NCBI GenBank assembly: GCA_905480435.1
Contig: CAJQQK010000104.1
Coordinates: 5,523-69,522 of the forward strand
Direction: 5' to 3'
Length of the DNA stretch: 64,000 nt
DNA from: an uncultured Hyphomicrobiaceae bacterium
GTDB lineage: Bacteria; Pseudomonadota; Alphaproteobacteria; Rhizobiales; Hyphomicrobiaceae
Part shown: in pieces, positions 7,868 through 27,934 of the stretch
How the letters are laid out: each line of letters opens with the position of its first letter
How positions within the stretch are numbered: position 1 is the first letter of the stretch
The notes under the pieces: generated by a model
Database searches by the model: none
What the model saw: the letters and a program-made list of their open reading frames with translations, nothing else
What the model was told of the DNA's origin: nothing
Translations under genes and position numbers: made by a program

Positions 7868-7878
7868 TCAAGTCTATC

Positions 7879-9988: not shown

Positions 9989-10727
9989 GCCATTGCTGCG
10001 CGTACAAGGACTGCAAAAACGTTTTGGCGGCGTCCACGCAACCGACGACGTTAATCTCAATGTCATCCCCAGTGAGACACACGCGATTATTGGGCCAAAC
10101 GGTGCCGGCAAGACGACGTTGATCTCACAACTCTCCGGACAGATTCTACCTGACGCCGGCAAGATCCTTTTCGATAACCGAGACATCACCCGCCTGCCTG
10201 CCTACCAGCGCGCGCACGTCGGCATCGCGCGATCATTCCAGATTACTTCTTTGTTTATGGACATGACCGTGCAGGACAACGTCGCGTTGGCTGTTCAAGC
10301 CCATCAAGGCCATTCGTTCCGGCTGTGGCGCCCCGCGAGATCCGACGATCACCTGCGCGCACCAGCGCTTGAGCCGCTCAAGACTGTTGGCTTGCACGAA
10401 CGCGCCGATTGGACCGTATCCGAGCTATCGCATGGCGAACGCCGCCAGCTTGAAATGGCGATGGCGCTCGCAGTGGCCCCGAAACTGATGCTGCTTGACG
10501 AACCGATGGCTGGCATGGGGCATGAGGAATCGATGCAGATGGTCGACACGTTGAAATCGCTCGGAGACCAGACAATCCTGTTGATCGAGCACGACATGGA
10601 TGCCGTCTTCGCGCTTGCAGACCGGATATCCGTCCTCGTCTACGGACGGATCGTTGCCACCGGCACACCTGAAGAAATCCGATCCAACGATGAGGTGCGC
10701 CGCGCCTACCTCGGCGAGGCTGCGTGA
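9981..10727 (+). CDS. ABC transporter ATP-binding protein, LivG-like
   Basis: Walker A GPNGAGKTT, signature LSHGERRQLEMAMAL. Start MTEPLLRVQGLQKRFGG at 9981. Confidence 0.9.
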   Translation: MTEPLLRVQGLQKRFGGVHATDDVNLNVIPSETHAIIGPNGAGKTTLISQLSGQILPDAGKILFDNRDITRLPAYQRAHVGIARSFQITSLFMDMTVQDNVALAVQAHQGHSFRLWRPARSDDHLRAPALEPLKTVGLHERADWTVSELSHGERRQLEMAMALAVAPKLMLLDEPMAGMGHEESMQMVDTLKSLGDQTILLIEHDMDAVFALADRISVLVYGRIVATGTPEEIRSNDEVRRAYLGEAA

Positions 10728-11428
10728 TGCTGGACGTCAAAGACATCGAGACGTTCTACGGCAGCAGTCAGGCGCTGTTTGGCATGACATTGAACGTCCA
10801 AGCCGGCGAAGTCGTGACGCTGCTCGGGCGCAACGGGATGGGCAAGACAACCACCATCAGTTCGATCATGGGCATTTTGCAACCACGCAACGGCACAGTC
10901 ACTTTCAACACCACCGCGATTGCCGGTGCACCATCGCATCGCATCGCCAAGCTCGGACTTGGTCTGGTCCCCGAAGGTCGACAGGTCTTCCCAAATCTCA
11001 CCGTTCACGAGAATCTTGTCGCGACAGCCAGCAACCGGCGCGGCGATCCAACGCCATGGGATGCTGACCGCATCTACGCGCTCTTCCCTGCGCTACAGCC
11101 GCGCCAATCGTCGATGGGCAATCTACTATCCGGCGGCGAACAGCAGATGCTCGCCATTGGCCGGGCGCTTATGACCAACCCGAAACTGCTGATCCTCGAT
11201 GAAGCAACCGAGGGGCTGGCCCCGCTCACCCGCGAAGAAATCTGGGCCTGCCTGACGCGGATCAAAGACGACGGCATGTCGATCCTGATCGTTGACAAGA
11301 ATATTGCAGATCTCGTGCGGCTTGCCGATCGGCATTACGTCATCGAGAAAGGCCGGGTTGTATGGTCCGGCTCATCACCCGAGCTCTTGGCGAACCCAGA
11401 GATACAACATCGCTATCTCGGCGTCTGA
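10724..11428 (+). CDS. ABC transporter ATP-binding protein, LivF-like
   Basis: Walker A GRNGMGKTT, signature LSGGEQQMLAIGRAL. 4-nt overlap with the preceding gene. Confidence 0.9.
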   Translation: MMLDVKDIETFYGSSQALFGMTLNVQAGEVVTLLGRNGMGKTTTISSIMGILQPRNGTVTFNTTAIAGAPSHRIAKLGLGLVPEGRQVFPNLTVHENLVATASNRRGDPTPWDADRIYALFPALQPRQSSMGNLLSGGEQQMLAIGRALMTNPKLLILDEATEGLAPLTREEIWACLTRIKDDGMSILIVDKNIADLVRLADRHYVIEKGRVVWSGSSPELLANPEIQHRYLGV

Positions 11429-12654
11429 CCGGATAAACCTGACTGCTGCATCGTCGCTTCTGTCTCGCTTTCAATGCGACCGAGATAAAGACCCGCGAGC
11501 GCCGTCAAAGCAGCCATGGGCAGCAGATAATAGAGTGACCAACTCCAATTTCCGCCGCCAACGCTGACGAGATATGTCGCGAGCGCTGGCCCGACAAATT
11601 GACCGATCGCTACCCCTTGCAGCATGAGCCCATTGACGGTTGAGATATGCGCCGGGCTTGGTGCGTGATGGCGCACGCCGGCAAACAGTGCCCCCGGAAT
11701 GAGGCCGCCAAAACACGAGAAACAAACCGCCCACGCCAATCTCGCTTCCACCGGCAACACATCACTCATGACCATGCAAGCCCCGCCGGCCATCGCTACC
11801 GCCGCAACCAAAATCAGTGTTGCCCGGCGAAAGCCTTTATCCAGCAGCAATCCGGCTGCGACATTGCCGATCGCGTTGATCATCATCACCCCTGCTGCGA
11901 CAGCTGCCGCCATCGGCAGCGACCAACTTGCTTCCTCGACCAGGATGAGCGGCACGAAAGCCGTGAGTGCGAGATACTGCCCCGAGTAACAGCCGAATGT
12001 GACGGCTAACATGACCGGCCCGCGGGCCCGCGCGGTCGTGGCAATTGTTTTCGCAATCGCCTTACTGGGTGCCGCCTTGTCCCGGCGCGGGGGACGCGGC
12101 GCTGCCCACAACAGCACCGCCAGCATAGCGGCCTGCGCGCCTGTAATCATCAGCCACAACCCTCGCCAACCAATTTCGGCGATGACAACACCACCGATCA
12201 GCAGTATGAGTCCTGCCCCAAATGGCAGATAGCCGCCCCAGAGCCCCATCGCGGATTGACGACGCCTGCCGTCCGAAAGCTGGATGACCAGCCCTGGCAG
12301 CGAGACCGACATCATGAAGAAGCCAATGCCTTCAACCGCACGGCCGACCAGCAACTGCATCGGGTCTGCAGCTAACGCACCACCAATGCCCCCCACAACC
12401 GAAACGACAATCCCGGCAATGGCCGTCCGGCGCAGTCCGGATGTCTCTGCGAGCGCACCGATCAACACACCACCCAATGCCGCCACCAACGACATCATTG
12501 ACACCAACAGGCCTGCTTCAAACAGCGTCAGATTCATCTCGTTGCGCAAAACGGGCAACGCCGCTGGCACCTTGCCGACCAGAAATGCAGCGGAAACGCC
12601 GACAGTAAAAACCGCGAACACGCGTGGCCAGCTATGCTGTTCTGCGTCACTCAT
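11413..12654 (-). CDS. MFS transporter
   Basis: About 413-aa protein with roughly 12 hydrophobic segments. ATG at 12654 about 10 nt after GAGG; alternative GTG at 12669. Confidence 0.8.
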   Translation of the reverse strand: MSDAEQHSWPRVFAVFTVGVSAAFLVGKVPAALPVLRNEMNLTLFEAGLLVSMMSLVAALGGVLIGALAETSGLRRTAIAGIVVSVVGGIGGALAADPMQLLVGRAVEGIGFFMMSVSLPGLVIQLSDGRRRQSAMGLWGGYLPFGAGLILLIGGVVIAEIGWRGLWLMITGAQAAMLAVLLWAAPRPPRRDKAAPSKAIAKTIATTARARGPVMLAVTFGCYSGQYLALTAFVPLILVEEASWSLPMAAAVAAGVMMINAIGNVAAGLLLDKGFRRATLILVAAVAMAGGACMVMSDVLPVEARLAWAVCFSCFGGLIPGALFAGVRHHAPSPAHISTVNGLMLQGVAIGQFVGPALATYLVSVGGGNWSWSLYYLLPMAALTALAGLYLGRIESETEATMQQSGLSGQTPR

Positions 12655-12768
12655 GCCGACCGGCCTCACAACTTATTGCTATGATCGATTTAGGAATCTC
12701 ACAGCTGTCAAATGGCATGACAAGAGACGCAAATCCTAGACGCTGACTAGTCCTTAATTCACCCAGGT

Positions 12769-14055
12769 TCAAGCCACACGACTAAGTGGCACGACATAGG
12801 GCCCCTCCGGAATAATCGCGACATCCGGATCGCCGTGTTTTGCGATACTGGCCGAGATGGCAGCTGACAGATCAGTCACACGCGCTACACCGGTCACGCT
12901 GAAATCATCCGGGCTCAGTCCATCTGTAAACAGCTGAACGGTGCCAACGCGCATCGGCTTCAGCTGCATCTCGGTTTGCCACTCATCGACATCAGCAAAG
13001 CTCTTGGCGAGCAGCGTATCCAAAAACGCATCCGGCCCGAGCCGCACAAGTTTCTCTTGCGACGCCCGAAAATGATCCGAGCCAATGCCTTCGGCACACT
13101 GCGATGCGACGATCAGCGTGCCGCCCGGCTCCAGAATATCCAGCGGCGTGACCATCCCTTTGACCGTCTGATAGTAGGTCTGATCCAGCGGATAACCAGC
13201 AGCCGACGTCACAACCGTCTTGAACCGACGCCCGACGGGGATCTCGGTAAAGTCTTTGACAAACGCGACGGCTGCAAGATGGCTTTCAATGATCTCGCCA
13301 AACGACGTGAACACCAACCGACGCTTGTCATCGATCACAGTATTGAGCGCGTAAACCTCACCGAGCATGCGGATGATTTCGAGCTGCTCTTCATGCAGCG
13401 GGTTCGCCGCCAGATTGCATTCGCGCGCAGCCGGGTCTTCCATAAACCGCGCCGAGTGGAATGTGCGTATCGTCTCATGGTGCGCGACGCCTGGCGCCAC
13501 AACTTTGCGCCCGCCGGAATATCCGGCCATGAAGTGTGGCTCGACCAAGCCCGTTGCAATTCGCAAATCAGCCTCGACAAACCGCTTATCAAGCTTGACC
13601 GGCACTCCCCGTCCGACCGTTGTTCCAAGATCAACATGATCGTCATCATTCATGGCAAAATGGTTTTCAACGCGGACATTTTCGAGCACCCACGGATCAC
13701 CAACCAGCTCGACCAACTCATTGCCTTCGTTCGGACGATGCAGCCCCGTCGCCACCAGCACCGAAATTTTCTCTTTCGCGATACCAGACGCCATCATCTG
13801 TTCTATCATCGGGCGCAGGAACAACCCATTCGGCACCGGCCTCGTAATGTCGCAAATCAAAATGCAGGCCGAAGACCGGCCCTTTGCCAGTTCCCTGAGC
13901 GGCGGGCAGCCCATCGGCACGTCAAATGCGGACGTGATCTGCTGCAATGGGTCGGCGATGCTTGGAAACGCCGGTTTCTCGATCAGATGAACTCGGGCAT
14001 CATCCGGCACGTCGCACGTCAGGCCATCGCGGCCATACAGCAGTTCAACTTTCAT
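12769..14055 (-). CDS. larA: LarA-family nickel-pincer-cofactor-dependent 2-hydroxyacid racemase/epimerase homolog, substrate unknown
   Basis: MKVELLYGRDGL... with the motifs ATGLHRP, EPHFMAGYSGGRK and a following HH. As I recall, these correspond to the catalytic His and NPN-tethering Lys regions of lactate racemase. ATG 14055 after AGGAAAG. Confidence 0.85.
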   Translation of the reverse strand: MKVELLYGRDGLTCDVPDDARVHLIEKPAFPSIADPLQQITSAFDVPMGCPPLRELAKGRSSACILICDITRPVPNGLFLRPMIEQMMASGIAKEKISVLVATGLHRPNEGNELVELVGDPWVLENVRVENHFAMNDDDHVDLGTTVGRGVPVKLDKRFVEADLRIATGLVEPHFMAGYSGGRKVVAPGVAHHETIRTFHSARFMEDPAARECNLAANPLHEEQLEIIRMLGEVYALNTVIDDKRRLVFTSFGEIIESHLAAVAFVKDFTEIPVGRRFKTVVTSAAGYPLDQTYYQTVKGMVTPLDILEPGGTLIVASQCAEGIGSDHFRASQEKLVRLGPDAFLDTLLAKSFADVDEWQTEMQLKPMRVGTVQLFTDGLSPDDFSVTGVARVTDLSAAISASIAKHGDPDVAIIPEGPYVVPLSRVA

Positions 14056-14198
14056 GACAGTACTTTCCTGCTTGGTGCGCAACTCAATGGAGTGATCACG
14101 ACCCTAACACTTTTGGATAGCGAGACGACATCAAGATTGCCACTGCACACGGGCGATCGCGAATGGCCAGCAGCAGGTGCCGCGATCCAACCTGGGTG

Positions 14199-15761
14199 CT
14201 AACCAACGTTGCGCTCGTGCCCTTCCCAATGCGGCGCCCGCAACTCGAACTTTTGAATTTTACCTGCACCTGACTTTGGCAACGGCTCATTGCGGATTTC
14301 AACGGAGCGCGGACACTTAAAACCGGCGATACGCTCCCGGCAATGCGCAATGATCGCGTCAGCATCCGGCACCGCACCATCGCGCGGCACCGCAATCGCG
14401 TGCACCGCCTCGCCCCACTGATCATCAGGGATACCGATCACGGCACACTCAGCCAGCCCCGGATACTGCATCACGGCATTTTCAACCTCTGCTGAATAAA
14501 CATTCTCGGCGCCAGTGATGATCATGTCCTTCACACGGTCGACAATGTAGATGAAGCCGTCTTCATCCATGTAGCCGCCATCGCCGGTGTGGATCCAGCC
14601 GTCTTTCATGGTCTCAGCGGTCTGCTCGGGCTTATTCCAATAGCCAGCCATATTGTTGGCGCCACGCGCGCGCACCTCACCGACAGTGCCACGCGGCACT
14701 TCGCGGCCTTCGTCATCAACAACTTCGACTTCGGTGGCGATAACCGGCAAACCAACAGATTGGATTTTCGATGCCTTCGGCCCTTCCAGCACATGGTACT
14801 CTGCGCCCAGCAACGTCACGAACGGCGCCAACTCGGTTTGGCCGTAGGCATGAATGAATTTCGTCTCGGGCATCTTTGCCATCGCCTCAGTGAGGATTGC
14901 TTGCGAGATCGGCGAAGCGCCATACACCATGCGCGTCAAGCGGCGCGTATCTGTGCTCTCCAGATCAGGGTTCTGCAGCAGCATGCCAATCATCGTTGGC
15001 ACCAGCAGCGAAATCGTTGGCCGGCGCTTTTCTAGCGCACGCAGGTAAGCGGATGCCTCGAAGCCCGGAATAATCGCATGTGATCCGCCAAAGGTGGTCA
15101 CTGCAAACAGCATCGCGCTGCCAGCAATATGAAACAGCGGCGCTGCCTGCAGGTTTCGATCCGTTGCAGATAGAGCCGCCGCGCCCGCACCAAAACTCAT
15201 CGCGCTCGACCAGATCGCTCGATGAGGCAGCATGACTCCCTTTGGGAAACCGGTCGTGCCACCGGTATAGAAGATGCCTGCGAGACCCTCACCGTTACGA
15301 AAGGCATCGCCAGCCGGTTGCGCATTGTCGATCAAGTCATCGAAACTGAGCATGCCAGCCGGCGCCGATTTCCCGCCTGCGTAAATGATGAACTCTATGG
15401 AAGAGCATTGTTTGGCAATTTCGGGCGCGATCTCGGCAAAATTGTCGTCAACGATCAAAAACCGCGCACCGGAATCATTGATCGAATAAATATGCTCCGG
15501 CACCGCCCAGCGGATGTTCATGGGCACAACGAGACCGCCAACCCAGAATGTGCCGTAATAGTAAATCGCATAGCGGTCTGAATTGAACGAAAGCATCGCG
15601 ACCCGATCTTCCGTTTTGAGACCAAGCTCATGCAGCCCGCCCGCCAAGCGTGCAACACAGTCTTGAAACTGGGCGTGGGTCAGGCTTCGCTCATCAGAAA
15701 CGAATGCGGCTTCATCGGGCGTCAATTTGGCGGCTCGACGCACGCCTTGTGTCATGTACAT
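14199..15761 (-). CDS. AMP-forming acyl-CoA synthetase (class I adenylate-forming enzyme)
   Basis: AMP-binding motif YTGGTTGFPKGV; C-terminal GKIQKFELR. Confidence 0.85.
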   Translation of the reverse strand: MYMTQGVRRAAKLTPDEAAFVSDERSLTHAQFQDCVARLAGGLHELGLKTEDRVAMLSFNSDRYAIYYYGTFWVGGLVVPMNIRWAVPEHIYSINDSGARFLIVDDNFAEIAPEIAKQCSSIEFIIYAGGKSAPAGMLSFDDLIDNAQPAGDAFRNGEGLAGIFYTGGTTGFPKGVMLPHRAIWSSAMSFGAGAAALSATDRNLQAAPLFHIAGSAMLFAVTTFGGSHAIIPGFEASAYLRALEKRRPTISLLVPTMIGMLLQNPDLESTDTRRLTRMVYGASPISQAILTEAMAKMPETKFIHAYGQTELAPFVTLLGAEYHVLEGPKASKIQSVGLPVIATEVEVVDDEGREVPRGTVGEVRARGANNMAGYWNKPEQTAETMKDGWIHTGDGGYMDEDGFIYIVDRVKDMIITGAENVYSAEVENAVMQYPGLAECAVIGIPDDQWGEAVHAIAVPRDGAVPDADAIIAHCRERIAGFKCPRSVEIRNEPLPKSGAGKIQKFELRAPHWEGHERNVG

Positions 15762-15857
15762 CGATGCCGCCCCACCCTTTTTCTACTAGTCCATTCTGCC
15801 CGGCGACAATTACAATATCGAGCAACCGGCCCGGGTCAAGCTGGCTTGCAGAACGCA

Positions 15858-17051
15858 CTATCCAGCGGTTTGCAAGCGCGCCAAAGGTCGGTCGCTGATC
15901 GGCCAATGGAACGCGGCCGATATCAACCCCAACGCAATTGAGATCATCCACATCAGATCGTACGAACCAGTTACATCGTATATGCGTCCGCCAAGCCAGG
16001 CGCCGGTAAATCCACCCAACTGGTGGCTCATGAAAACGATCCCGAATAGAAACGAGAAATGCGCTGGCCCGAACACCTGAGCAACAATGCCGCTCGTCAG
16101 CGGCACGGTGCTGAGCCAGACCAATCCCAAGCACGCACCAAATGCGATCGCCGTCACATCGGTCAACGGCATGATCAACATCACTGTCATTAATGCGGCA
16201 CGTAGCAGATAGATCACTGTCAGCACGCTTTTCTTGCTGTAGCGGTCGCCAAGCGCACCAAACAAATAAGCCCCCAGAACATTGAAGAGCCCAATCACAC
16301 CAAACGCATACGAGGCGGCCGCTGGTGACACATTATTGTCTGACAGGTAAGCCGGGAAATGCGTGCCAATAAACGTCACGTGAAAACCGCAAACGAAGAA
16401 GCCCATTGTCAAAAGCAAATAACCGCGATGGCGCAAGGCTTCACGGGCTGCATCACGCGCCGACTGCTTAGCCCCACCGCCTGCAGCAACTGGTGGAACG
16501 CGCAAGCCAAGAGCAAACAGCGGTGCCAGCATGATGAGCATCGCCATCGCAACCATGGTTGGGCGCCAACCGACCTGATCCAGGAACTGCTGTGCTGCTG
16601 GCACGAAGAAGAACATGCCCAATGAGCCAGAGGCGATGACAGTACCAAAGACGATGCCGCGCCGCTCGCTTGGCACAACCTTGCCAATCGCGCCGAGCAC
16701 AATGACATTGGTCGCGCCGCTGAGCCCCAGTCCAACCATCAGACCCAGTGAGATATAAAGATCGAGGGCGCTGGCCGCCAAGCTCGTCAGCCACAACCCG
16801 GCACCATAAACCAGGGCACCGACGGTGATAACGCGCAACGCGCCGTATCTGTCTGCCAACAAACCCGCGATCGGTTGGAACGCACCATACAGCAGCGCCT
16901 GCAGTGCGATCACCAGACCGAACGTTTCGCGGCCGATACCAAGGTCAAGCGAGATGGGTCGCAGAAAGACGCCAAAACTCATGCGCAAGCCATTGCCGAC
17001 AAGCACGACCGCGACGCCGCACAGCAGCATAATCCATAAACGGCGTGTCAC
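15858..17051 (-). CDS. MFS transporter
   Basis: 397-aa polytopic protein with an MFS-like loop (ADRYGALRV). Confidence 0.8.
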   Translation of the reverse strand: MTRRLWIMLLCGVAVVLVGNGLRMSFGVFLRPISLDLGIGRETFGLVIALQALLYGAFQPIAGLLADRYGALRVITVGALVYGAGLWLTSLAASALDLYISLGLMVGLGLSGATNVIVLGAIGKVVPSERRGIVFGTVIASGSLGMFFFVPAAQQFLDQVGWRPTMVAMAMLIMLAPLFALGLRVPPVAAGGGAKQSARDAAREALRHRGYLLLTMGFFVCGFHVTFIGTHFPAYLSDNNVSPAAASYAFGVIGLFNVLGAYLFGALGDRYSKKSVLTVIYLLRAALMTVMLIMPLTDVTAIAFGACLGLVWLSTVPLTSGIVAQVFGPAHFSFLFGIVFMSHQLGGFTGAWLGGRIYDVTGSYDLMWMISIALGLISAAFHWPISDRPLARLQTAG

Positions 17052-17165
17052 TATCGTTCCCCCAATTCATATCGCTCTTGGCATAGGTCGTCCAAAAAGA
17101 CTGACCAGAAGACACTACTGGATGTCATCATTGATATGCAGCTTCACGGTGCCTCAACCAAGCCT

Positions 17166-17834
17166 TCAACCAAGCTTGGCTCTTCCGAGAATTCGCAATG
17201 CCGCACAGGCCGCGCCATAACCATTGTCGATATTGCAGACCGTCACTCCTGACGCGCACGAAACCAGGCTCGCTGCAAGCGCCGTCTCGCCGTTTCGTGC
17301 AGCGCCATAGCCCGTCGACGTCGGCACCGCGATCAGCGGTTGAGCGACAAGTCCGCCGAGCACGCTGACCAATGCTGCGTCCATACCGGCGACCGCAATG
17401 ATAACGTCATGCTGGCGGATCTCCTCAAGGCGCTCCATCAACCGCCAGAGGCCAGCGACACCGACATCGAAAATTGCCGTGGCATTGACGTCATTGAATG
17501 CGAGCGTGCGCAACACTTCGTGCGCCGCCCCTGCATCGGACGTACCAGCCGCCACGACTGCCACTTGTCTTCCCGCTGAACTGCCGCTCGCGACAAAATC
17601 GAAGAAAGCCGTCCCTGAAACCGGGTCATAGTCCAGTCGCTCAGCCAACTCAGGTCCGAGCTCGGCGTATTGCGTCGCGCTCAATCGGGTCAGCAACAGG
17701 GGGGCACCGGCATCGCCTGCCAGCTCAAGAATGCGCCCAATCTGAGCAACCGATTTCTGCTGACAGAAGATCGCCTCCCCAAAGCCGACGCGCTCACTGC
17801 GCATCAAATCGAGTTTGATTTCCTCGTCGGTCAT
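17166..17834 (-). CDS. larB: LarB, nickel-pincer cofactor biosynthesis carboxylase/hydrolase (PurE-like)
   Basis: VAVVAAGTSDAGAAHEV... IAVAGMDAALVSVLGGLV... PTSTGYGAA pattern typical of LarB. ATGA overlap with larE. Confidence 0.9.
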   Translation of the reverse strand: MTDEEIKLDLMRSERVGFGEAIFCQQKSVAQIGRILELAGDAGAPLLLTRLSATQYAELGPELAERLDYDPVSGTAFFDFVASGSSAGRQVAVVAAGTSDAGAAHEVLRTLAFNDVNATAIFDVGVAGLWRLMERLEEIRQHDVIIAVAGMDAALVSVLGGLVAQPLIAVPTSTGYGAARNGETALAASLVSCASGVTVCNIDNGYGAACAALRILGRAKLG

Positions 17835-18673
17835 GAAACGATATTTCTGTCGCCAACAAAGGCACTACCACGCTGATAGTCCGCCAGGGCTATGTTGACG
17901 TCTGCCAGACCATCAACTTGTTTTCTCAGGTCTTGCATCACATCCACACGGCGTGATCCAGTCAGACGCGCGTGCGTTTCAGCATCCAACTCGATCACCA
18001 TCCCAAGCCGACGCAGACGGCAGCGCACAACCTCTGGCGTAAGGTGTTCGCGACACCAAGCTTCAACGGCGTCAATCAGCACCAGATCTTTAGCCTCGAT
18101 CGGAATGCCGGTTTCCACCCGACTGGAGAGACACGGCGAAGATGGCAGAGCTGCATACTCGGCCAAACCCATTGCTGCCGCCAAAGCCCGCACGGCGTTC
18201 TTGTCGATGCCAGCTTCGACATAAGGATGCCGGACGTTGTGATTTCGCGCAGCCTCAAGCCCGGGTCTGTAATCACCGAGGTCATCGCAATTGGTGCCAG
18301 ACAATACTGTGCCTTCGGACATCGCACTCAACGTCCGGTACAGGTTTGATTTGCAGAAAAAACACCGATTGATCGGATTGGCACGATATTCAGGATCGGC
18401 AAACTCGCCAGCATCGACGACATCGAGATGCCAGCCTTCTCGGTGAGCCAAATCACGGATACGACCGGCAGCATCTCCCGGTACAGCCGGCGACGTGGCA
18501 TGCACCATGCGCACGACATCACTTCCGAGCTGGCGATGTGCGAAGCAGGCCAGCGTCATGGAATCGACACCGCCTGAAACCGCTATCGTGACAGGGCCTG
18601 TCGACGCAAGCACAGCGGCAAGGCGCTCAGAGTGTGATGTCACGATACCCTCCGAGACTGTTTCATTCATCAT
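17831..18673 (-). CDS. larE: LarE, ATP-dependent sacrificial sulfur transferase (PP-loop ATPase)
   Basis: PP-loop AVSGGVDSMTLA. Position between larC and larB. Confidence 0.9.
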   Translation of the reverse strand: MMNETVSEGIVTSHSERLAAVLASTGPVTIAVSGGVDSMTLACFAHRQLGSDVVRMVHATSPAVPGDAAGRIRDLAHREGWHLDVVDAGEFADPEYRANPINRCFFCKSNLYRTLSAMSEGTVLSGTNCDDLGDYRPGLEAARNHNVRHPYVEAGIDKNAVRALAAAMGLAEYAALPSSPCLSSRVETGIPIEAKDLVLIDAVEAWCREHLTPEVVRCRLRRLGMVIELDAETHARLTGSRRVDVMQDLRKQVDGLADVNIALADYQRGSAFVGDRNIVS

Positions 18674-19994
18674 CTTGATCTGGGTCTAGCACAGATCTTT
18701 CTGCGCGTCCGCGTGCCCGCTGACGTCCGGCGTGGGTTGCAATACCCGACAGATCATCCGCCTCTGCCTTGGCGGTCATGCCAGACGGACGGCTGGCAAG
18801 CTTCACGTGAATGTCATCCGAACTGGTGATTTTGCGCTCCACGGTGTCGCGAGCAGCAATCGCCCGTCGCACACCGAGCGTCGTCGTTTCATCAAGTATC
18901 AGGCGGGCAACTTCCGAGCCGCCGTCTTGCCGGACCAGCACCTGAATGGCGATCGCCATGCGGCCCTTCTTGGCAAACACCGGCCATTGACAGACATCGA
19001 GCACGCCATCGCTGTCCCGGATATTATCGAGCGCGATGGCGAGATCCTCCGGCGTCTGGTCGTCAATCTCGCAGCGCAGAACTTCGACGACATCCGCGGC
19101 CGTCTCAACTGATGCCGGCGCGGCAGTATAGAGCGTGGCACGCAAGATGTTGCTGCGCCGTTTCAAGCGTTTGGTGCCAAATCCCGTGCCTGTTGTCAGC
19201 AATTGACGCGGCATCAAATCAGCCGACTGCGAAGGCGCCAGATAGCTCAGGATCGCGGCGCCGGTTGGCGTGATGCGCTCGCCGTCCTCGCCGTCATCGT
19301 GCAGGGCATAGCCCTTTAGGAGTTCCACCGTCGCCGGTGCCGGCAGCGGCAGCATTCCATGCGCCGACTTGACCAATCCACGCCCACGCGGCAATGACCC
19401 GACCGACCATTTGGCATTCGGAAATTGCGCAATGATGGCGGCAGCCGCAACGATATCAACGATCGAGTCCCACGCACCAACCTCGTGGAACGACACATCA
19501 TCGACGGCTATTCCATGCACCGCAGCTTCGGCGATCGCCAACCGGGTGAAGATCCCAATGGCGGCCTCACGCTCGCCGTCCGATAAGTGGGCAGCCTCAA
19601 TGCGTTGTCTGATCTGCCGCCACGGATGATGCCCCGCGCCGTCCCCCGGTCCGTGTTCATGATGATCGTGCGCATGGGAGTGGTCGTGGGAGTGGTCGTG
19701 CTCATGTTTATGATCGTTGCCAGATGCGTCGTCGTGCCCCGCATGATCATGATGCTCTTCGACGCCTGCGACGTGAAACTGTCGGCCTGTCAAAACCCCA
19801 TCGGTGTACTCGGCAACCGACGCCTGCACCTGAGCCGGCGGCGACATCGCCGCGATAGCACGTTGACAGACCGACCAAGTCGTCGGCAGCGCGTCGAGCA
19901 AGGACGCGACAAACATGTCGCCGGCGATCCCGCCAACAGCATCCAGATGAATTGCGGTCACCGATTTTACAGATGGTTCCTCAATGTCCGCCAC
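18663..19994 (-). CDS. larC: LarC, nickel insertion (CTP-dependent cyclometallase) protein, single ORF
   Basis: N-terminus IHLDAVGGIAGDMF (DUF111-type) and a His/Asp-rich tract, HHDHAGHDDASGNDHKHEHDHSHDHSHAHDHHEH. 11-nt overlap with larE. Confidence 0.9.
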   Translation of the reverse strand: MADIEEPSVKSVTAIHLDAVGGIAGDMFVASLLDALPTTWSVCQRAIAAMSPPAQVQASVAEYTDGVLTGRQFHVAGVEEHHDHAGHDDASGNDHKHEHDHSHDHSHAHDHHEHGPGDGAGHHPWRQIRQRIEAAHLSDGEREAAIGIFTRLAIAEAAVHGIAVDDVSFHEVGAWDSIVDIVAAAAIIAQFPNAKWSVGSLPRGRGLVKSAHGMLPLPAPATVELLKGYALHDDGEDGERITPTGAAILSYLAPSQSADLMPRQLLTTGTGFGTKRLKRRSNILRATLYTAAPASVETAADVVEVLRCEIDDQTPEDLAIALDNIRDSDGVLDVCQWPVFAKKGRMAIAIQVLVRQDGGSEVARLILDETTTLGVRRAIAARDTVERKITSSDDIHVKLASRPSGMTAKAEADDLSGIATHAGRQRARGRAERSVLDPDQDDE

Positions 19995-20006
19995 GCACGC
20001 TCCTGC

Positions 20007-20846
20007 CTAGGCAATATACTCAAGGACGCTGTCGAACGTCTCTTCGCGCACCACGACCCGGCTGGCTTCATCGATGATGGGTACTTCGGCTGCCTTAGCG
20101 ATCCGACGTATCTCGCTTAGGTCGCCAACTTTTACAACAAGCGCGCCAAAGATTGATGTCCGCTCTGCCAGTGACGACGCGAGAGCACCGTAACGTCCTC
20201 TGTAAGCGGCGGACGACAGAAAACTGATCTTCGCGCCATCCAGTTTGACACTCAGCTGATCACCCGCGCCTTCAACATCGGCGCGCAGCAGCTTGGCCAT
20301 GTCTTCCGCCTCGCCGCGATGATTGTCGGACGCCACAACGAACTCCGGCAACGCGAGAGCGCCATTGCCATGGCTTTGCCATTCCGGACGCCAGACCAGC
20401 TCGGGCGTGCCATGCTCGCAAAAATATACGCGCCCACCAGGGAACGCATCATGGCGCACATGTACGGTTCGGAAGCACGCATCAAACGTACCGTCTGGCA
20501 ACTTAACAGGGCGCGAGAACGATTTTGGCGGATCACCCGCCATGCCGACCGCCTGGAGATGCGCATACGTCTCGTCGACATCGGATGTCTTGAACACAAG
20601 CCCGTTGATACCGTATGCCGCGTTCTCAATATCCGGCCTGCCCGACTGCTTTTCTTTGGCGTCAGCTGGCAGCCCGATCAACTCCAGATAGTCACTGCCG
20701 AACATCATAAGATGGTTGATCGAACCGAGCGTGTGATAACCACGCTCGGTCAAATGGAAACCTAACGCGCGGAACCGGTCAGCTGCCTGATCCATCTCGT
20801 AGCGGACATTGATCACGGTATGATCGAGCTGTACCAGTTGCGCCAT
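20007..20846 (-). CDS. VOC/glyoxalase-like domain protein
   Basis: LDHTVINVRYEMDQAADRFRALGFHLTERGYHTLGSINHLMMFGSDYLELIG resembles the glyoxalase-like fold. Stop is only 12 nt upstream of the larC start. Confidence 0.6.
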   Translation of the reverse strand: MAQLVQLDHTVINVRYEMDQAADRFRALGFHLTERGYHTLGSINHLMMFGSDYLELIGLPADAKEKQSGRPDIENAAYGINGLVFKTSDVDETYAHLQAVGMAGDPPKSFSRPVKLPDGTFDACFRTVHVRHDAFPGGRVYFCEHGTPELVWRPEWQSHGNGALALPEFVVASDNHRGEAEDMAKLLRADVEGAGDQLSVKLDGAKISFLSSAAYRGRYGALASSLAERTSIFGALVVKVGDLSEIRRIAKAAEVPIIDEASRVVVREETFDSVLEYIA

Positions 20847-20894
20847 TGTCGTTTCCTCTATCTGTCAGGCAATCTGCGTTTCAACTTCTGTGAC

Positions 20895-21722
20895 CTAAAC
20901 CGGCCGATCCCCCTTGACCGTCACACGATAGCCGGAGCGGGTGTTCGGAAAATAATCCCAGATCGCAAGGTGCTGTACTGCCCGGTTGTCCCAAAACGCC
21001 ACCGAATTTGGCTTCCACCGAAAACGCACATGAAAATCTGCATTAGCGCAATGCTCATGCAGCATCCGTAAGATGCTTTCACTTTCGAGACGTGGCACGT
21101 CGTTAATGCGCATCGTAAAGATCGGGTTGACGAACAGCGCCTTGCGGCCCGTCTCTGGATGTGTGCGAACCACCGGATGGTCGGCGCTCGGGTACACCAT
21201 GCGGCTGTCATCGGAGACCATATCTTTGTATCGGCCGCGATATTGCTGCTCACCATCGTGCCGAGCCGTGAGACCATCAAGGTATGCCTTCATGCGATCC
21301 GAAAGCGCATCGTAGGCGGCACACATGTTGGAGAACAGCGTGTCGCCACCAAACTCAGGAACCGTGTGCAAATGAAGAATGGAGCCGAGCGGCGGCTCCT
21401 CATCGCACGACACATCCGAATGCCAACGCTCGCCTGCAATATACGTTGAAGTCTTATCCGCGTGGATCGGCAAGATCTCTGGATGCCCTTCTGGCCCTGG
21501 TATCGCCGGGTGGACGTGCAGCTCACCAAACAACCGGCCAAACGCCTTGTGGCTGTCATGATCAAGTTCCTGGTCGCGAAAGAAGATCACGCAATGCTCT
21601 TTGAGCGCCTCGTGTACTTCGTGTGAGGTTCGATTATCCAACGGTTTGGTCAGATCAACGCCTTCGATTTCCGCTCCGATCCGTGCCGTCATCGGATTGA
21701 CCTTGATGACTTCGTATTGCAT
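20895..21722 (-). CDS. TauD/TfdA-family Fe(II)/2-oxoglutarate dioxygenase
   Basis: ARIGAEIEGVDL start region, HxD motif WHSDVSCDEEPP, SILHLHTVPEFGGDTLF, and C-terminal WDNRAVQH. Confidence 0.9.
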   Translation of the reverse strand: MQYEVIKVNPMTARIGAEIEGVDLTKPLDNRTSHEVHEALKEHCVIFFRDQELDHDSHKAFGRLFGELHVHPAIPGPEGHPEILPIHADKTSTYIAGERWHSDVSCDEEPPLGSILHLHTVPEFGGDTLFSNMCAAYDALSDRMKAYLDGLTARHDGEQQYRGRYKDMVSDDSRMVYPSADHPVVRTHPETGRKALFVNPIFTMRINDVPRLESESILRMLHEHCANADFHVRFRWKPNSVAFWDNRAVQHLAIWDYFPNTRSGYRVTVKGDRPV

Positions 21723-21831
21723 GTGCCGTTCCCTCTATCTTGTGATCGCTGCAATGGCGCCTTGTTCGACGTCCACCTTAGGTATTGACCTGTTTCAGCG
21801 TCAATTTTGGATGCGATGACTGCGCTGCATC

Positions 21832-22719
21832 CTAATCTATTCGACCCAATTGGTCTTGTTTGATCGGAATCTGCATCCGATCCTCGCCCCAGATGATCGT
21901 ACCGCCATAGATCGCGCTCATCTCAGCGATGATTTTCTCGCGCAGGCCCGGTGCATCGATCTGCTCGGTCATGTGCGTCAGGACCACCGAGCCGACGCCA
22001 GCCTGCTCGGCGACGTGGGCCGTGTCGATGTGATTGCCACAGAACCGACGGTAGGCTTCATTCGGTTCAGAACCGGAATAATAATGGTTCATGTGCACCA
22101 GGACGTCACAGCCTTTCGCTAGCTTGACGATCGCCGGGCACACACCGCCACTGTCGCCGCTATAGCAGATCGACCCTGTGTCGCTTTCAAAGCGGAAGGC
22201 GAGACAATTCAGATACGGCTGCGCATGCCAACCGGAACCGACTGTGACGCGCCAATTATCCGTCTCAATCTTATCGCCGTCCTCAAGCTCCCGGACAACA
22301 GGTGCTGGCGGCAGACGTGGCAGCACGCCACCTCTGGCCTCATAGATATCCAAACTTGCGGTGTGCTCGGTGCGCGCCTTGATGTCAGGTCCATAGATAC
22401 CATCGGGGCCAATCAGCTGGTTGGTAATGCGCTCGATCGGACTTGGCCCATAAACCTGCAGCGGCGGCAGCTTGCCACCGCTTTGATCCCAGCGCGTCAT
22501 CAACAGGCGCGGATAGTCCATGAAATGATCGTAGTGCAGATGACTGAGGAAACAGTGCGTCACCTCGGTTGCCTGCCGGCCCAATTCGAGAAATCGATGA
22601 TGCGCGCCTGGACCATGATCGATCACGATGACGTCGTCGCCAATCTCCAGCAGATACCCCGACGACATCCGCTTCAGCGACGGCCCCGGTGTGCCGGTGC
22701 CCAGCAATGTGAATTTCAT
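21832..22719 (-). CDS. MBL-fold metallo-hydrolase
   Basis: MKFTLLGTGTPGP..., HxHxDH motif (SHLHYDH). Confidence 0.85.
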   Translation of the reverse strand: MKFTLLGTGTPGPSLKRMSSGYLLEIGDDVIVIDHGPGAHHRFLELGRQATEVTHCFLSHLHYDHFMDYPRLLMTRWDQSGGKLPPLQVYGPSPIERITNQLIGPDGIYGPDIKARTEHTASLDIYEARGGVLPRLPPAPVVRELEDGDKIETDNWRVTVGSGWHAQPYLNCLAFRFESDTGSICYSGDSGGVCPAIVKLAKGCDVLVHMNHYYSGSEPNEAYRRFCGNHIDTAHVAEQAGVGSVVLTHMTEQIDAPGLREKIIAEMSAIYGGTIIWGEDRMQIPIKQDQLGRID

Positions 22720-22841
22720 AATGCACTCCTCTGCGCGACGCTTTGCAGCCTCACAAATTCAGACGTGATTGGCAGAACCTCGCTTTGATGCGAACGTGCC
22801 GCTCGGCAAACACTGCAAAATCTCTACAGGAAAACGGAACC

Positions 22842-24146
22842 ATGCACGATCCAGCACGACGAACAATCACGGAGTTGGCAGCGGCCCTCGGTTCAGGCGA
22901 GCTAAAGCCATCCGAGGTCATTGACGCTTGTCTTGCGCAAGCCGATGCGTGCGAAAGTGACGTCCGTGCCTGGGCGCACCTTGGTGCCGATAATGCTCGG
23001 ATGGCAGCCCGACTGTTGGACCAGATATCGTCAACAGGTCCCCTTTATGGCGTTCCCTTCGGCATCAAAGACATCATCGAGACGAGCGACATGCCAACCG
23101 GCTATGGCACGCCGATCTATCACCATCACCAGCCAGCCAGAGATGCAGCCTGTGTCGCCCTGCTGCGAGAAGCCAGCGGCGTGTGTCTCGGCAAAACCGT
23201 GACAACCGAGCTGGCCCACTTTCATCCAGGCAAAACCCGCAACCCGCATGGCCTGACACACACGCCGGGCGGCTCCTCAAGCGGCAGCGCCGCAGCCGTT
23301 GCCGCATGTATGGTCCCCGTCGCTCTTGGCACCCAAACAACGGGCTCCGTACTGCGGCCTGCCTCATACTGCGGTGTCTATGGCTTCAAGCCGAGCTTTG
23401 GCGATGTCAGCCGCTCCGGCGTCATGGAGTGCGTTTCCAGCTTTGACACGGTCGGCTGGTTTACACGCAGCGTTGCTGATGTCGAGATCGTTCGCCAAGC
23501 CTTAGTCCGCATCCCGTTCGTGCCATTGCAAAAGCCTGCAACAACAAGCCTTCGCGTCGGACTTTTTCGCGGACCGGACTGGGCTGAGGCCGAAGACTAC
23601 ACCAAGGAACTGCTTGAGGGAGCCGCAAGCAAGCTCGCCAAAGCCGGCGCCAATGTTTCGGACGTAGCCTCACCAGATGGTTTCGGAGACATCGCAACCC
23701 ATCACAGAACCATCGCCGGTTATGAATTTGCCCGCGCCATCACCTGGGAGCGAACACAACGCGCGCCACTGCTTAGCCCCAAACTGGTAGACGGTCGCTG
23801 CGCCGATGGCCTCGCTTCAACCTACGAACAATACGCCGAAGCACAGAGCGCGCTGGTCCGGCAACGCGCGCAATACGCCCAAATGATGGAAGCATACGAT
23901 GTCTTGTTAACGCCATCAGCACCCGGCGAAGCCTGGTCGGGCCTCGGCGCAACCGGTGTCCCAACCTTCAACACCGCATGGACCGCTTTGCATGTTCCGG
24001 CACTTAGCGCACCCGCGTTCAGCGGCCCTTCCGGCATGCCGGTCGGCTTGCAATTGGTTGGCAAATTCCGTCAAGACGCGGCCTTGCTCGGCGCCGCCGA
24101 AACGGTCTGTGCAGCCTTGGACGTCGAGATCGTTCGCGGCGTGTAA
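22842..24146 (+). CDS. Amidase (amidase-signature family)
   Basis: GGSSSGSAAAVA signature and FGIKD motif. ATG 22842 chosen; the ORF track starts at 22743. Confidence 0.9.
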   Translation: MHDPARRTITELAAALGSGELKPSEVIDACLAQADACESDVRAWAHLGADNARMAARLLDQISSTGPLYGVPFGIKDIIETSDMPTGYGTPIYHHHQPARDAACVALLREASGVCLGKTVTTELAHFHPGKTRNPHGLTHTPGGSSSGSAAAVAACMVPVALGTQTTGSVLRPASYCGVYGFKPSFGDVSRSGVMECVSSFDTVGWFTRSVADVEIVRQALVRIPFVPLQKPATTSLRVGLFRGPDWAEAEDYTKELLEGAASKLAKAGANVSDVASPDGFGDIATHHRTIAGYEFARAITWERTQRAPLLSPKLVDGRCADGLASTYEQYAEAQSALVRQRAQYAQMMEAYDVLLTPSAPGEAWSGLGATGVPTFNTAWTALHVPALSAPAFSGPSGMPVGLQLVGKFRQDAALLGAAETVCAALDVEIVRGV

Positions 24147-24179
24147 AACTGCGTACCGTTACAACCGACCACAAAAAAA

Positions 24180-24199
24180 GGCGGGTCCCGAGACCCGCC
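24180..24199. terminator. Bidirectional hairpin terminator between the convergent amidase and TRAP genes
   Basis: GGCGGGTC-CCGA-GACCCGCC, flanked by AAAAAAA upstream and TTTAT downstream. Confidence 0.75.
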
Positions 24200-24228
24200 T
24201 TTATATTCTAAATCCGCGTTCACGTGCT

Positions 24229-25512
24229 TTAGTTGAAGATCGATACCACTGCCATGCTCGGCAGCCAAAGTACGAGTATCGGGAACAACATGCACAGGAT
24301 GAGCACGCACCCGTCTGTGCACAGGAACGGGAATGAGCCTTTCATCACTGTCGTCACCGGCACCTTGGTGGTGCCGCTGACCGCGAACAGATTGAGACCG
24401 ACCGGCGGGATCACCGCGCCCATCTCGATGCAAAGCGCAAACAGAACGCCAAGGTGGATCGGGTCGATGCCAAGCGAGATCGAAACCGGGTGAATGATCG
24501 GCACGATCAACACCAGAATGGCAACGCCCGTTAGGAACATCGACAGCAGCAACAGGACAACCATCAGCAACGCCAGGAAGCCGAGCGGCGAAAGCCCCAT
24601 GCCGGTGACCCATTCCGCGATGTCCTGTGGCCAGCCTTGGTTGGCGAGCAGAAACTGGAAGATGCCAACGCCGCCGAGTAGGAAGAACAGGATCGCCGTC
24701 AAGTTCACCGCACGCGACGTGGCCGCCAACATCTGCGGATAGAAATCCTTCTTCATCGACAGGAAGCCATAGACCATCGCGTAGGCACACGCCCCAGCGC
24801 CCGCCTCCGTCGGTGTCATGACACCACCATAGAGCCCGCCGAGCACGAAGACCGGCATCAACAGTGCCGGCAATGCCGCGACCCCAGCCGACTTGAATTC
24901 GGTCCAGCTGAATTGATTGGCCGGCAATTTGATGATCAGCGCCATTGTCATCACGATGATGGCGTCACTGAACGCGAGCATCAAACCCGGTACAATGCCG
25001 GCAAAGAACAGCTTGATGATCGATTCGTCCGTGAGCACGCCATAGAGGATGAGCGTGATACTCGGCGGAATGAGAATCGCGATGCCGCCGCCGGTCGCGA
25101 TCACGCCAGCGGCCATCCAGGTCGGATAACCGCGTTTGATCATTTCCGGAAAGGCCACGACGCCCATTGCAGCGGCCATCGCGGTACTCGAACCCGAAAT
25201 CGCACCGAACATCACGGCCGCCAGGATCGTTGCGTAGGCAAAGCCGCCGGGCACCCAGCCAATCATGGCATCGGCGAAGCGGAAGAGTTTTATGATAAGG
25301 CCGGTTCGTTCCATCAGGAAGCCGGCGTAGATGAAGAACGGGATCGCCATCAGCGTGTATTTGTTTACGAAGCTGAAGAACGACCGGAAGATCACCGCTT
25401 CCGACATAGACGGATCGTAAACGATAAAGCCGACTGTGGCGGCGATCAGCGCAAGCGCGATCGGCGCACCGAGTGCCAGCAGAGCAAGGAGTGCGGAGCC
25501 AAGAATTCCCAT
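24229..25512 (-). CDS. TRAP transporter large permease (DctM family)
   Basis: 427-aa polytopic protein with typical DctM sequence. 2-nt gap to the small-permease gene. Confidence 0.9.
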   Translation of the reverse strand: MGILGSALLALLALGAPIALALIAATVGFIVYDPSMSEAVIFRSFFSFVNKYTLMAIPFFIYAGFLMERTGLIIKLFRFADAMIGWVPGGFAYATILAAVMFGAISGSSTAMAAAMGVVAFPEMIKRGYPTWMAAGVIATGGGIAILIPPSITLILYGVLTDESIIKLFFAGIVPGLMLAFSDAIIVMTMALIIKLPANQFSWTEFKSAGVAALPALLMPVFVLGGLYGGVMTPTEAGAGACAYAMVYGFLSMKKDFYPQMLAATSRAVNLTAILFFLLGGVGIFQFLLANQGWPQDIAEWVTGMGLSPLGFLALLMVVLLLLSMFLTGVAILVLIVPIIHPVSISLGIDPIHLGVLFALCIEMGAVIPPVGLNLFAVSGTTKVPVTTVMKGSFPFLCTDGCVLILCMLFPILVLWLPSMAVVSIFN

Positions 25513-25514
25513 GA

Positions 25515-26072
25515 CTAGATGTCAATCCCTTCTTCGACGGGCGCCCAGGTGAAGACGTCCTTGCCCATCAGGGCGCGAATGTCCTGGTAGAGCTGGAAGA
25601 GGCACACAATTGCCAAGAGAAAAAAGGAAACAGCGAGAACTGCCTGAAACGGCCAAATTTCGAGAACCATGCTCTGGGTCTTGCGGCCCATCAACATGGA
25701 ACGCTCGATCGTCGGCATGCCCCACCAGGCAATGGCACCATAGACGACGACAGACATGCCAGTTATGACTGTGCGTATGTAGAGGATCGTGCGTTTATAG
25801 CCGCGGTTATCAAGCATATCAACGGCAGCACTCATGCGCAGATGCGAGCGTTTTGCTTGTGTCACGGCGAAATACAAGAAGAGCGAGCCAACCATGCCGT
25901 ACGTCACAGCATCCTGCCCCCAATCAAAGACCACGCCGAAGATGTAGCGCCGCGCAACCTCAGAGATCGCGAGCCATGTGCCAAGGAACATAGCGAGCAT
26001 CGCAACGTAGGCGACAACGTAATCGAGCAGGAATCGGAACCCGCGATAGAGTTTGTCGACAATCCAGTCCAT
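25515..26072 (-). CDS. TRAP transporter small permease (DctQ family)
   Basis: 185 aa, four hydrophobic segments, located between the DctP and DctM genes. Confidence 0.85.
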   Translation of the reverse strand: MDWIVDKLYRGFRFLLDYVVAYVAMLAMFLGTWLAISEVARRYIFGVVFDWGQDAVTYGMVGSLFLYFAVTQAKRSHLRMSAAVDMLDNRGYKRTILYIRTVITGMSVVVYGAIAWWGMPTIERSMLMGRKTQSMVLEIWPFQAVLAVSFFLLAIVCLFQLYQDIRALMGKDVFTWAPVEEGIDI

Positions 26073-26194
26073 CAGTAGGCTCCCCCGGCCCTCGGCAAAG
26101 ACGACGCATGTCGCGAAGTCCCGCCAGTCAGACGATCAAAAACCGGCCAGTCTGTTGCCAAACCAGCCGGTCTCTTATTCTTCAGTTTCCGATG

Positions 26195-27915: not shown

Positions 27916-27934
27916 CACAGCCTCACGTCCCCGT

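Follow-up and report, generated by a model that had tools for sequence, protein, structure and literature searches.

The window analysed here is a stretch of 64,000 nucleotides (nt) of DNA from an uncultured Hyphomicrobiaceae bacterium. Its positions 12769-22719 hold a tightly packed gene array in which larB, larC, larE and a gene for a homolog of the racemase LarA stand together with genes for a metallo-beta-lactamase (MBL)-fold hydrolase, a TauD-family dioxygenase, a vicinal oxygen chelate (VOC) protein, a major facilitator superfamily (MFS) transporter, here MFS1, and an AMP-forming acyl-coenzyme A (CoA) synthetase, here the ligase. On balance, and with modest confidence, the array is read as a lineage-specific mosaic in which functional coherence is confined to one core, a lar system of the standard nickel-pincer-nucleotide (NPN) kind. 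The lar genes and the racemase belong to known families, and their neighbourhood is a lineage-specific variant whose meaning is not demonstrated. An earlier note on this DNA had proposed an undescribed catabolic route in which a 2-hydroxy acid, formed for instance by TauD-type hydroxylation, is inverted by the NPN enzyme and activated with CoA by the ligase. This proposal did not survive the comparative check: in surveys seeded on the LarA, VOC and ligase proteins, the linkage of the TauD, MBL, VOC and ligase genes with lar genes was not conserved beyond three related contigs (L001, L081 and L083; 65-97% protein identity), and the LarA homolog falls in a characterised group of short-chain/lactate racemases. 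A single shared pathway for the array is not supported.

Layout of the array

The array comprises the following genes, given in their order on the minus strand together with the evidence for each.

21832-22719, minus strand: MBL-fold hydrolase gene (open reading frame (ORF) and Pfam)
20895-21722, minus strand: TauD-family dioxygenase gene (ORF and Pfam)
20007-20846, minus strand: VOC protein gene (ORF and Pfam)
18663-19994, minus strand: larC (ORF and NCBIfam)
17831-18673, minus strand: larE (ORF and NCBIfam)
17166-17834, minus strand: larB (ORF and NCBIfam)
15858-17051, minus strand: MFS1, the first MFS transporter gene (ORF and Pfam MFS_1)
14199-15761, minus strand: AMP-forming acyl-CoA synthetase (ligase) gene (ORF and NCBIfam)
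12769-14055, minus strand: LarA homolog gene (ATG at 14055, 428 residues)

The gene order and spacings put forward in the earlier note match the ORFs exactly. The MBL and TauD genes are separated by 109 nt and the TauD and VOC genes by 48 nt, and the VOC stop was measured at 12 nt from the larC start, as had been stated. Overlaps of 11 nt between larC and larE and of 4 nt between larE and larB follow, and then gaps of 114 nt (larB to MFS1) and 96 nt (MFS1 to ligase). The last gap depends on the start chosen for the LarA homolog. Its longest ORF, 12769-14082, begins with a TTG at 14082 and leaves 116 nt to the ligase gene; the ATG at 14055 leaves the 143 nt reported earlier and gives a protein of 428 residues, the length of nearly all homologs. 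Ten co-directional genes had been counted, and ten there are, but 12769-22719 holds only nine, all with intact ORFs on the minus strand. The tenth is a second MFS transporter gene (MFS2) at 11413-12669, just beyond that interval, and it probably accounts for the earlier count of ten. Pfam and NCBIfam agree with every family identity that had been proposed, and larB, larC and larE score above curated cut-offs.

A Shine-Dalgarno-like motif was found upstream of every array gene. As the earlier note had it, no terminator-like hairpin lies between the genes: the hairpin scan returned none in any intergenic gap of the array. Weak terminator matches numbered 15, against 17.2 expected from shuffled sequence, and those inside the array are all intragenic. 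Short gaps, Shine-Dalgarno-like motifs and the lack of visible terminators make co-transcription of the array genes plausible. The promoter scan gave 4 matches against 7.5 in shuffles, and a candidate internal promoter at 15839-15812, in the gap between MFS1 and the ligase gene, was discarded for want of evidence, the scan being below shuffle level. No Rfam match was obtained in 11000-28500 at E up to 0.1, so that no riboswitch accounts for the gaps. The G+C content of the array region is uniform with its surroundings. A known plasmid as the source of the 10-kb array was likewise discarded, as megablast against PLSDB gave just two 52-nt matches of chance size.

The LarA homolog and its cofactor genes

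The LarA homolog consists of a Lar_N domain (PF09861, 182 bits) and a LarA_C domain (PF21113, 62 bits). The two motifs that the earlier note had singled out, ATGLHRP and EPHFMAGYSGGRK, are present and invariant across the clade of this protein, and its active site is intact. In LarA of Lactiplantibacillus plantarum (LarA_Lp) the catalytic histidines are His108 and His174. In the family, Lys184 tethers the NPN, His200 binds nickel, and Arg75, Tyr294, Gln295 and Lys298 contact the carboxylate and hydroxyl groups, these residue roles having been described for LarA_Ip of Isosphaera pallida. The catalytic pair of the window protein is H106 (in ATGLHRP) and H174 (in EPHFMAG). Its D69, R72, H106, H174, K184, H200, Y295, Q296, V298 and K299 fit the LarA signature positions, and eight of these (R72, H106, H174, K184, H200, Y295, Q296 and K299) show no variation when 21 clade members are aligned. 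By its architecture, its catalytic and cofactor residues and the nearby larB, larC and larE, the protein is assigned to the LarA superfamily.

The lactate racemase equivalog NF033504 was matched with 341 bits, under its cut-off of 460, and the curated scores of the malate racemase families in NCBIfam were not reached either. The closest solved relative is LarA_Ip, also called LarAH2 or Sar (PDB 9EIA, 9EID), a broad-spectrum short-chain aliphatic 2-hydroxyacid racemase (SAR); the alignment to 9EID spans 418 residues at 43% identity and scores 356 bits. Other solved relatives were L. plantarum LarA (190 bits) and Mar2 (164 bits). The window protein and LarA_Ip share their fold families, the catalytic His pair, the Lys and His that hold the NPN, and the Arg, Tyr, Gln and Lys contacts to the carboxylate. 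The active-site loop is Leu-Met or Phe-Met in the SAR group and Phe-Phe in lactate racemases (Desguin et al., PMC7583248). In the window protein it is Phe175-Met176, i.e. not Phe-Phe; the Met is shared with LarA_Ip, whereas the Leu is replaced by a Phe, which another group-2 member also has. Moreover, W359-Q360 matches the Trp-Gln pair of LarAH2 (Dataset S2, PMC7583248). Of the 20 positions of the published signature, 17 fit and three differ. By its loop, its Trp-Gln pair and its closest similarity to LarAH2 the protein is classed as a new member of the characterised short-chain racemases (SAR, group 2 of Desguin) and not as an orphan type. LarA_Ip prefers lactate and 2-hydroxybutyrate, then glycerate, and a survey published in JBC in 2024 reports that Gln at the T359 position accompanies high glycerate specificity. 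The substrate of the window protein is most likely a small 2-hydroxy monocarboxylate, with lactate, glycerate and 2-hydroxybutyrate as candidates.

The cofactor genes are of the expected families. LarB (NaAD carboxylase/hydrolase, NaAD being nicotinic acid adenine dinucleotide) reaches 238 bits with NF033503 (cut-off 175), and LarE (ATP-dependent sulfur insertase) reaches 247 bits with TIGR00268 (cut-off 150). LarC, the CTP-dependent nickel insertase, is a fusion of LarC1 (TIGR00299, 174 bits, cut-off 90) and LarC2 (NF052512, 93 bits, cut-off 50), with a His-rich stretch of the usual nickel-binding type at about residues 79-113. The LarE translation contains SGGVDS (the P-loop), CFFC and SPCL. 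With the CXXC-C motif as defined in PMC9283937, the window LarE is predicted to be of the catalytic CXXC-C [4Fe-4S] type and not of the sacrificial-Cys type that its NCBIfam name implies. Finally, the best NCBIfam matches of MFS1 were to the L-lactate transporter SfMCT (125 bits) and to oxalate/formate antiport (98 bits), both under their cut-offs. MFS1 appears to be of the monocarboxylate or oxalate-formate-antiporter type and is likely a carrier for a small carboxylate.

This set recalls the larABCDE operon of L. plantarum, in which a racemase gene is likewise clustered with larB, larC and larE around an embedded transport gene, larD there and MFS1 here (PMC7583248, PMC9283937). The differences are as clear: LarA_Lp is distant (190 bits) and has a Phe-Phe loop, LarE of L. 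plantarum is of the sacrificial single-Cys type and the window LarE of the CXXC-C type, and six genes of the window array are without counterpart in the L. plantarum operon. LarD of L. plantarum is a lactate channel.

Taken together with what homology provides, LarB, the Fe-S type LarE and LarC would build the NPN cofactor from NaAD, and Lys184 and His200 of the LarA homolog would anchor the NPN. With His106 and His174, this enzyme would then catalyse a proton-coupled hydride transfer that inverts a small 2-hydroxy monocarboxylate at C2. By analogy with larD of the L. plantarum operon, MFS1 plausibly carries the hydroxy acid.

The wider occurrence of the LarA homolog was followed by neighbourhood surveys, which were also seeded on the VOC and ligase proteins. 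Relatives confirmed by tblastn were found in more than 590 GTDB species representatives. The LarA survey took the best 80 of these (65-88% identity) with flanks of up to 10 kb, 51 loci having full flanks. The content of the loci was read by cluster-size-guided ORF selection and by direct tblastn counts with the window proteins. Two other procedures were abandoned: when the longest ORFs were called greedily, antisense ORFs were chosen at the 80 high-GC loci and LarA was recovered in only 43, and a filter on the difference between third- and second-position codon G+C (GC3 minus GC2) missed larE and the neighbouring amidase gene in the window. Alpha-, Beta- and Gammaproteobacteria make up most of the hosts, and some of the remainder are metagenome-assembled genomes (MAGs) of Eremiobacterota, Acidobacteriota and Verrucomicrobia. 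Within this predominantly proteobacterial distribution the window protein belongs to a clade that is separate from LarA_Ip and very conserved, and for which no characterised member was found.

At 57 of the 80 clade loci, larB, larC or larE lies within 10 kb of the LarA gene. By contrast with this usual linkage, the TauD, VOC, ligase and MFS1 genes were near LarA at a single locus (L001) and at none of the 51 with full flanks. Other neighbours were short-chain dehydrogenases/reductases (SDR, 11 loci), aldo-keto reductases (11), GntR/FCD regulators (8), glycerate 2-kinase (6), enzymes resembling 3-hydroxyisobutyrate dehydrogenase or tartronate-semialdehyde reductase (6) and GlcD-like oxidases dependent on flavin adenine dinucleotide (FAD; 5). 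Examples of such loci are L004, L006, L009, L021, L019 and L072. The kinase, the reductases, the SDR and the GntR neighbours fit a small central hydroxy acid. At L082, where LarA is 86% identical, the context is wholly different, with a class II aldolase beside LarA and no lar genes nearby.

A highly conserved LarA clade with no characterised member is thus widespread in aerobic Proteobacteria, and its neighbours suggest glycerate- or lactate-type substrates. In the literature surveyed, the prevalence of LarA homologs is highest in predominantly anaerobic taxa. The proteobacterial clade, with its mostly aerobic lineages and its glycerate 2-kinase and tartronate-semialdehyde-reductase-like neighbours, may represent a physiological glycerate- or lactate-type racemase; no paper describing a dedicated glycerate racemase was found.

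The other array genes and explanations of the array

The TauD-like protein matches Pfam TauD with 230 bits and NF007104 with 280.8 bits, under the cut-off of 313, and aligns end to end with the TauD proteins of E. coli and Pseudomonas putida (1GQW, 3PVJ; 225-228 bits). The Fe ligands of E. coli TauD, His99, Asp101 and His255, are kept (WHSD and QH motifs), as are the 2-oxoglutarate contacts Thr126 and Arg266 and the sulfonate contacts His70 and Arg270. All taurine-amine contacts are replaced in the alignment to 1GQW (Tyr73 by Ile, Asn95 by Gly, Ser158 by Gln). The roles of these residues in binding Fe, 2-oxoglutarate, sulfonate and amine are taken to be those of the TauD structural literature. 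As the amine contacts are replaced, the anion contacts kept and the score under the cut-off, the protein is predicted to take a non-taurine anionic substrate. It would be an Fe(II)/2-oxoglutarate dioxygenase but no taurine dioxygenase, and, unlike the case of TauD itself, tauABC genes are absent beside it. The demonstrable loss of the taurine-amine contacts makes this TauD-family enzyme of interest in its own right.

The MBL protein belongs to Pfam Lactamase_B_2 and is RNase-Z-like. Every NCBIfam match was far under its cut-off, and the best solved relative, the MBL-type 'arylsulfatase' 8GYG, reached only 72 bits. The VOC protein has two domains and matches Glyoxalase_3 (PF13468) with 105 bits; a sequence search of the PDB gave no match for it. 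An AlphaFold2 model with a mean predicted local distance difference test (pLDDT) of 94.5 returned from Foldseek only generic two-domain VOC folds (3P8A, HPPD/HMS) at a template modelling (TM) score of about 0.65 and about 10% identity, so that no reaction can be assigned to the VOC protein.

Outside the lineage, about 90 loci with VOC relatives were compared, and lar genes stood beside VOC at none of them. They were absent from 80 marine metagenome loci with VOC relatives of 39-70% identity, and from the VOC relatives of 59-72% identity that were looked up singly. The recurrent context is instead an AMP-ligase, a (Zn-)alcohol dehydrogenase, a 4HBT thioesterase, the VOC protein and an HpcH/HpaI-type lyase, which suggests an acyl-CoA or a related acid as the substrate of this Glyoxalase_3 VOC family. 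Loci with this VOC/4HBT/HpcH context are L084-L086, L098-L109, L131, L133, L173 and L177. The VOC proteins of this uncharacterised marine set are 57-69% identical to that of the window; in the window lineage, in contrast, the VOC gene stands between the TauD-like gene and larC, and the 4HBT and HpcH partners are absent.

The ligase reaches the subfamily model NF004837 (485 bits, cut-off 476). Its best PDB matches are 8WEU/8WEV (fatty-acyl-/feruloyl-CoA synthetases), FadD8, FadD5 and FadD13, and it is placed by these matches in a broad fatty-acyl/feruloyl-type subfamily. The idea that it is the benzoate-CoA ligase of the nearby box genes was rejected: its solved relatives are fatty-acyl/feruloyl-type, with no benzoate-CoA ligase among them at E up to 1e-60. 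Nor is the synteny of the array with the box and Liv genes found in L081 or L083. At five loci with ligase orthologs (66-73% identity) the contexts are unrelated and lar genes are absent from all five. The ligase orthologs have another companion, a protein of about 440-450 residues without Pfam domains. Its gene lies between the ligase gene and larA in L001 and L081. It also directly follows the ligase ortholog in L089-L091, where the protein is 72% identical to its L001 counterpart. The genes are placed as follows.

L001:8560-9912: gene for the protein of about 440 residues
L089:9563-10882: gene for the protein of about 440 residues
L081:7202-8541: gene for the protein of about 440 residues

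As the pair is conserved in two unrelated contexts, the ligase and the protein of about 440 residues are regarded as a two-gene module. No trace of the partner was seen in the window, which appears to have lost this second half.

Three contigs carry the full array again: L001, a Hyphomicrobiaceae MAG; L081, a metagenome contig from the European Nucleotide Archive; and L083, a contig of 1.19 Mb. It is no assembly accident, because the same gene order is found on these three independent contigs. Protein identities range from 65% for LarC to 97% for DctM, a subunit of a neighbouring tripartite ATP-independent periplasmic (TRAP) transporter. The array has been altered in several places. The MBL-TauD gap, 109 nt in the window (21723-21831), measures about 760 nt in L001 (300-1075) and L083 (8346-9103), and no convincing ORF was found in this longer spacer. 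Insertion sequence (IS) elements (DDE_Tnp_1, IS66) flank larA in L081 and follow it in L083. With the different setting of LarA at L082, they are taken as signs that larA is mobile. In L081 (3374-4019, 4321-5497) the alignments of larB and of MFS1 are each broken by a frame shift into two parts, which represents either real decay or an assembly error. The inserts of L001 between ligase and larA and between larA and MFS2 were considered as IS elements and turned out to be the 450-residue protein and a pobA-like FAD monooxygenase, though L081 and L083 do have IS elements at these places. Compared in this way, the relatives present the array as a mosaic in flux.

Under the mosaic reading, the TauD-like, VOC, MBL, amidase, TRAP and ligase genes would be neighbours of the lar core with their own histories and partners, the ligase being the remnant of its pair with the 440-residue protein. 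The genes would be read from one or a few long transcripts, probably starting in the 122 nt that separate the MBL gene from the divergent amidase gene. Their co-expression would reflect local genome history, with no demonstrated common pathway.

Several observations weigh against this reading. A block running from a YchJ-like small ORF and dctPQM through the divergent amidase gene to larA has the same order in the window and in L083, and the flanks of this block differ between the two on both sides. The TauD-VOC-larCEB-MFS1-ligase segment has stayed in one piece in L001 and L081, where other rearrangements have occurred, and the VOC-larC junction measures 12 nt in L081 and L083, compared with about 15 nt in L001. 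Such cohesion at 65-88% protein identity hints at selection for co-expression and is the strongest point in favour of it. In addition, L175, a locus with a 73% identical VOC relative, has larC-larE-larB 5.5 kb away on the opposite strand and may be a rearranged version of the window array. The two parts lie at 1594-4460 and 10001-10840, and the contig comes from the same Joint Genome Institute (JGI) sample as L082. At L089-L091 a distant TauD-family gene (28% identity) again adjoins the ligase ortholog. Finally, the residues of the LarA homolog equivalent to T353, A360 and I362 are Ala, Thr and Met, unlike the Phe/Val, Leu/Val and Glu/Lys of the published SAR sequences, and on account of these three differences its pocket is not identical to the SAR pocket.

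Among the alternatives, the single route of the earlier note fares best, and it is unlikely. In its extended form the amidase, MBL and TauD-like enzymes turn an imported compound into a 2-hydroxy acid, which is inverted by the NPN racemase and then converted to a CoA thioester by the ligase. If true, this would be the first use of the NPN cofactor in an oxygen-dependent catabolic route of a marine aerobe, and it would show what an uncharacterised TauD-like enzyme acts on physiologically. Tight co-directional packing without terminators agrees with it, as do the TRAP-to-larA block kept between different flanks in L083 and the conserved VOC-larC junction. So does a TauD-like protein that retains anion-binding residues but not the amine contacts, hence a non-taurine acid. 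Nevertheless, outside the lineage the linkage fails for LarA (1 of 80), for VOC (none adjacent) and for the ligase (0 of 5), whose real partner is the lost 440-residue protein. The LarA homolog itself belongs to a characterised short-chain group whose usual linkage is to larBCE only. The chemistry also fits poorly. TauD, AtsK, TfdA and RdpA act on carbons that bear a leaving group, and the known products of such reactions are carbonyls, not 2-hydroxy acids. What the evidence favours instead is a lar system of the ordinary kind with unusual neighbours, and the case serves as a warning that tight co-directional packing within one lineage is weak evidence of a shared pathway.

A smaller route, quite doubtful in our view, would have MFS1, LarA and the ligase take up, racemise and activate a short acid to a 2-hydroxyacyl-CoA, the TauD, VOC, MBL, amidase and TRAP genes forming an unrelated unit. 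It draws on the position of MFS1 and the ligase between larB and larA in all four contigs (the window included) and on the resemblance of MFS1 to monocarboxylate carriers. Against it stand the ligase orthologs elsewhere, which never adjoin lar genes or MFS1, and the 440-residue protein that parts the ligase from larA in L001 and L081. The array also holds no enzyme (lyase, dehydratase or mutase) to handle a 2-hydroxyacyl-CoA. A literature search on LarA together with acyl-CoA found no papers.

The recurrence of the TRAP-to-larA block in the same order on four contigs, with at least two sets of flanks, could also mean that the block serves a single pathway, whose substrate would be an anionic marine compound not yet recognised; we consider this a long shot. 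The compound might be a short 2-hydroxy acid that is sulfonated, sulfated or ether-linked, or else the amide of such an acid. The role of the NPN racemase would then be to channel onward the 'wrong' enantiomer arising from the amidase, MBL or TauD-like steps.

It is very improbable that the array is a hitch-hiking and partly decaying island, moved or reshuffled by IS elements, whose composition has no functional meaning and some of whose genes are near loss. The IS elements around larA in L081 and L083 would fit, as would the apparent splits of larB and MFS1 in L081, the loss of the 440-residue and pobA-like genes from the window and the variable MBL-TauD gap. On the other side, the nine window ORFs are intact, their active-site residues are conserved and the G+C content does not depart from its surroundings; the splits in L081, moreover, could be assembly errors. 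Hardly credible, lastly, is the idea that the VOC, MBL or TauD-like protein is a new user of the NPN cofactor, as nothing except the short and conserved VOC-larC junction speaks for it, VOC relatives at 39-73% identity are without adjacent lar genes, a bona fide LarA-family NPN enzyme is already in the array and every enzyme shown to use NPN in the surveyed literature is a LarA homolog.

Flanking genes in the window

The array is bordered by the following features.

26195-27370, minus strand: TRAP solute-binding subunit, DctP family (Pfam DctP; TRAP_S1, 69 bits, cut-off 50)
25515-26072, minus strand: TRAP small permease, DctQ (89% identical to the gene annotated DctQ in L083)
24229-25512, minus strand: TRAP large permease, DctM (TIGR00786, 330 bits, cut-off 268; 97% identical in L083)
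24177-24202, minus strand: the sole strong terminator-like hairpin of the region (11-bp stem with T-run)
22842-24146, plus strand, divergent from the MBL gene: amidase of the amidase signature family (Pfam Amidase, 257 bits)
11413-12669, minus strand: MFS2, the second MFS transporter (Pfam MFS_1; weak best NCBIfam match to the aromatic acid/H+ symporter family)

DctP is 84% identical and syntenic in L083 and is listed as the first gene of the block common with that contig. The hairpin lies 3' of dctM, closes the TRAP unit and stands just past the convergent amidase gene. No NCBIfam equivalog was reached by the amidase. Its longest ORF begins at a TTG (22743), 23 nt from the MBL start, and the ATG at 22842 fits the 437-residue homolog of L083. 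The ATG start leaves the divergent intergenic region of 122 nt between the MBL and amidase genes, which is likely a control region; no regulator gene was found near it.

On the other side, MFS2 in L001 and L081 adjoins a divergent pobA-like FAD monooxygenase gene, located between larA and MFS2 and absent from the window. MFS2 is probably a part or remnant of an aromatic-acid (hydroxybenzoate) module and does not belong to the lar genes. Adjacent box genes had been reported, and a complete set of boxR, boxA, boxB and boxC is indeed present at 1116-6644. It is followed by a five-gene Liv-type ATP-binding cassette transporter (1116-11428 in all) that converges on MFS2. The LivF end is common to L001, which makes the Liv/MFS2 junction ancestral in that contig.

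Elsewhere in the window, a second TauD-family gene was noticed at 49751-50746 on the minus strand through a 29% match to the TauD-family protein of L089. The window also contains two luciferase-like monooxygenases and, at 37556-41514, a further pair of AMP-ligase and acyl-CoA dehydrogenase genes.

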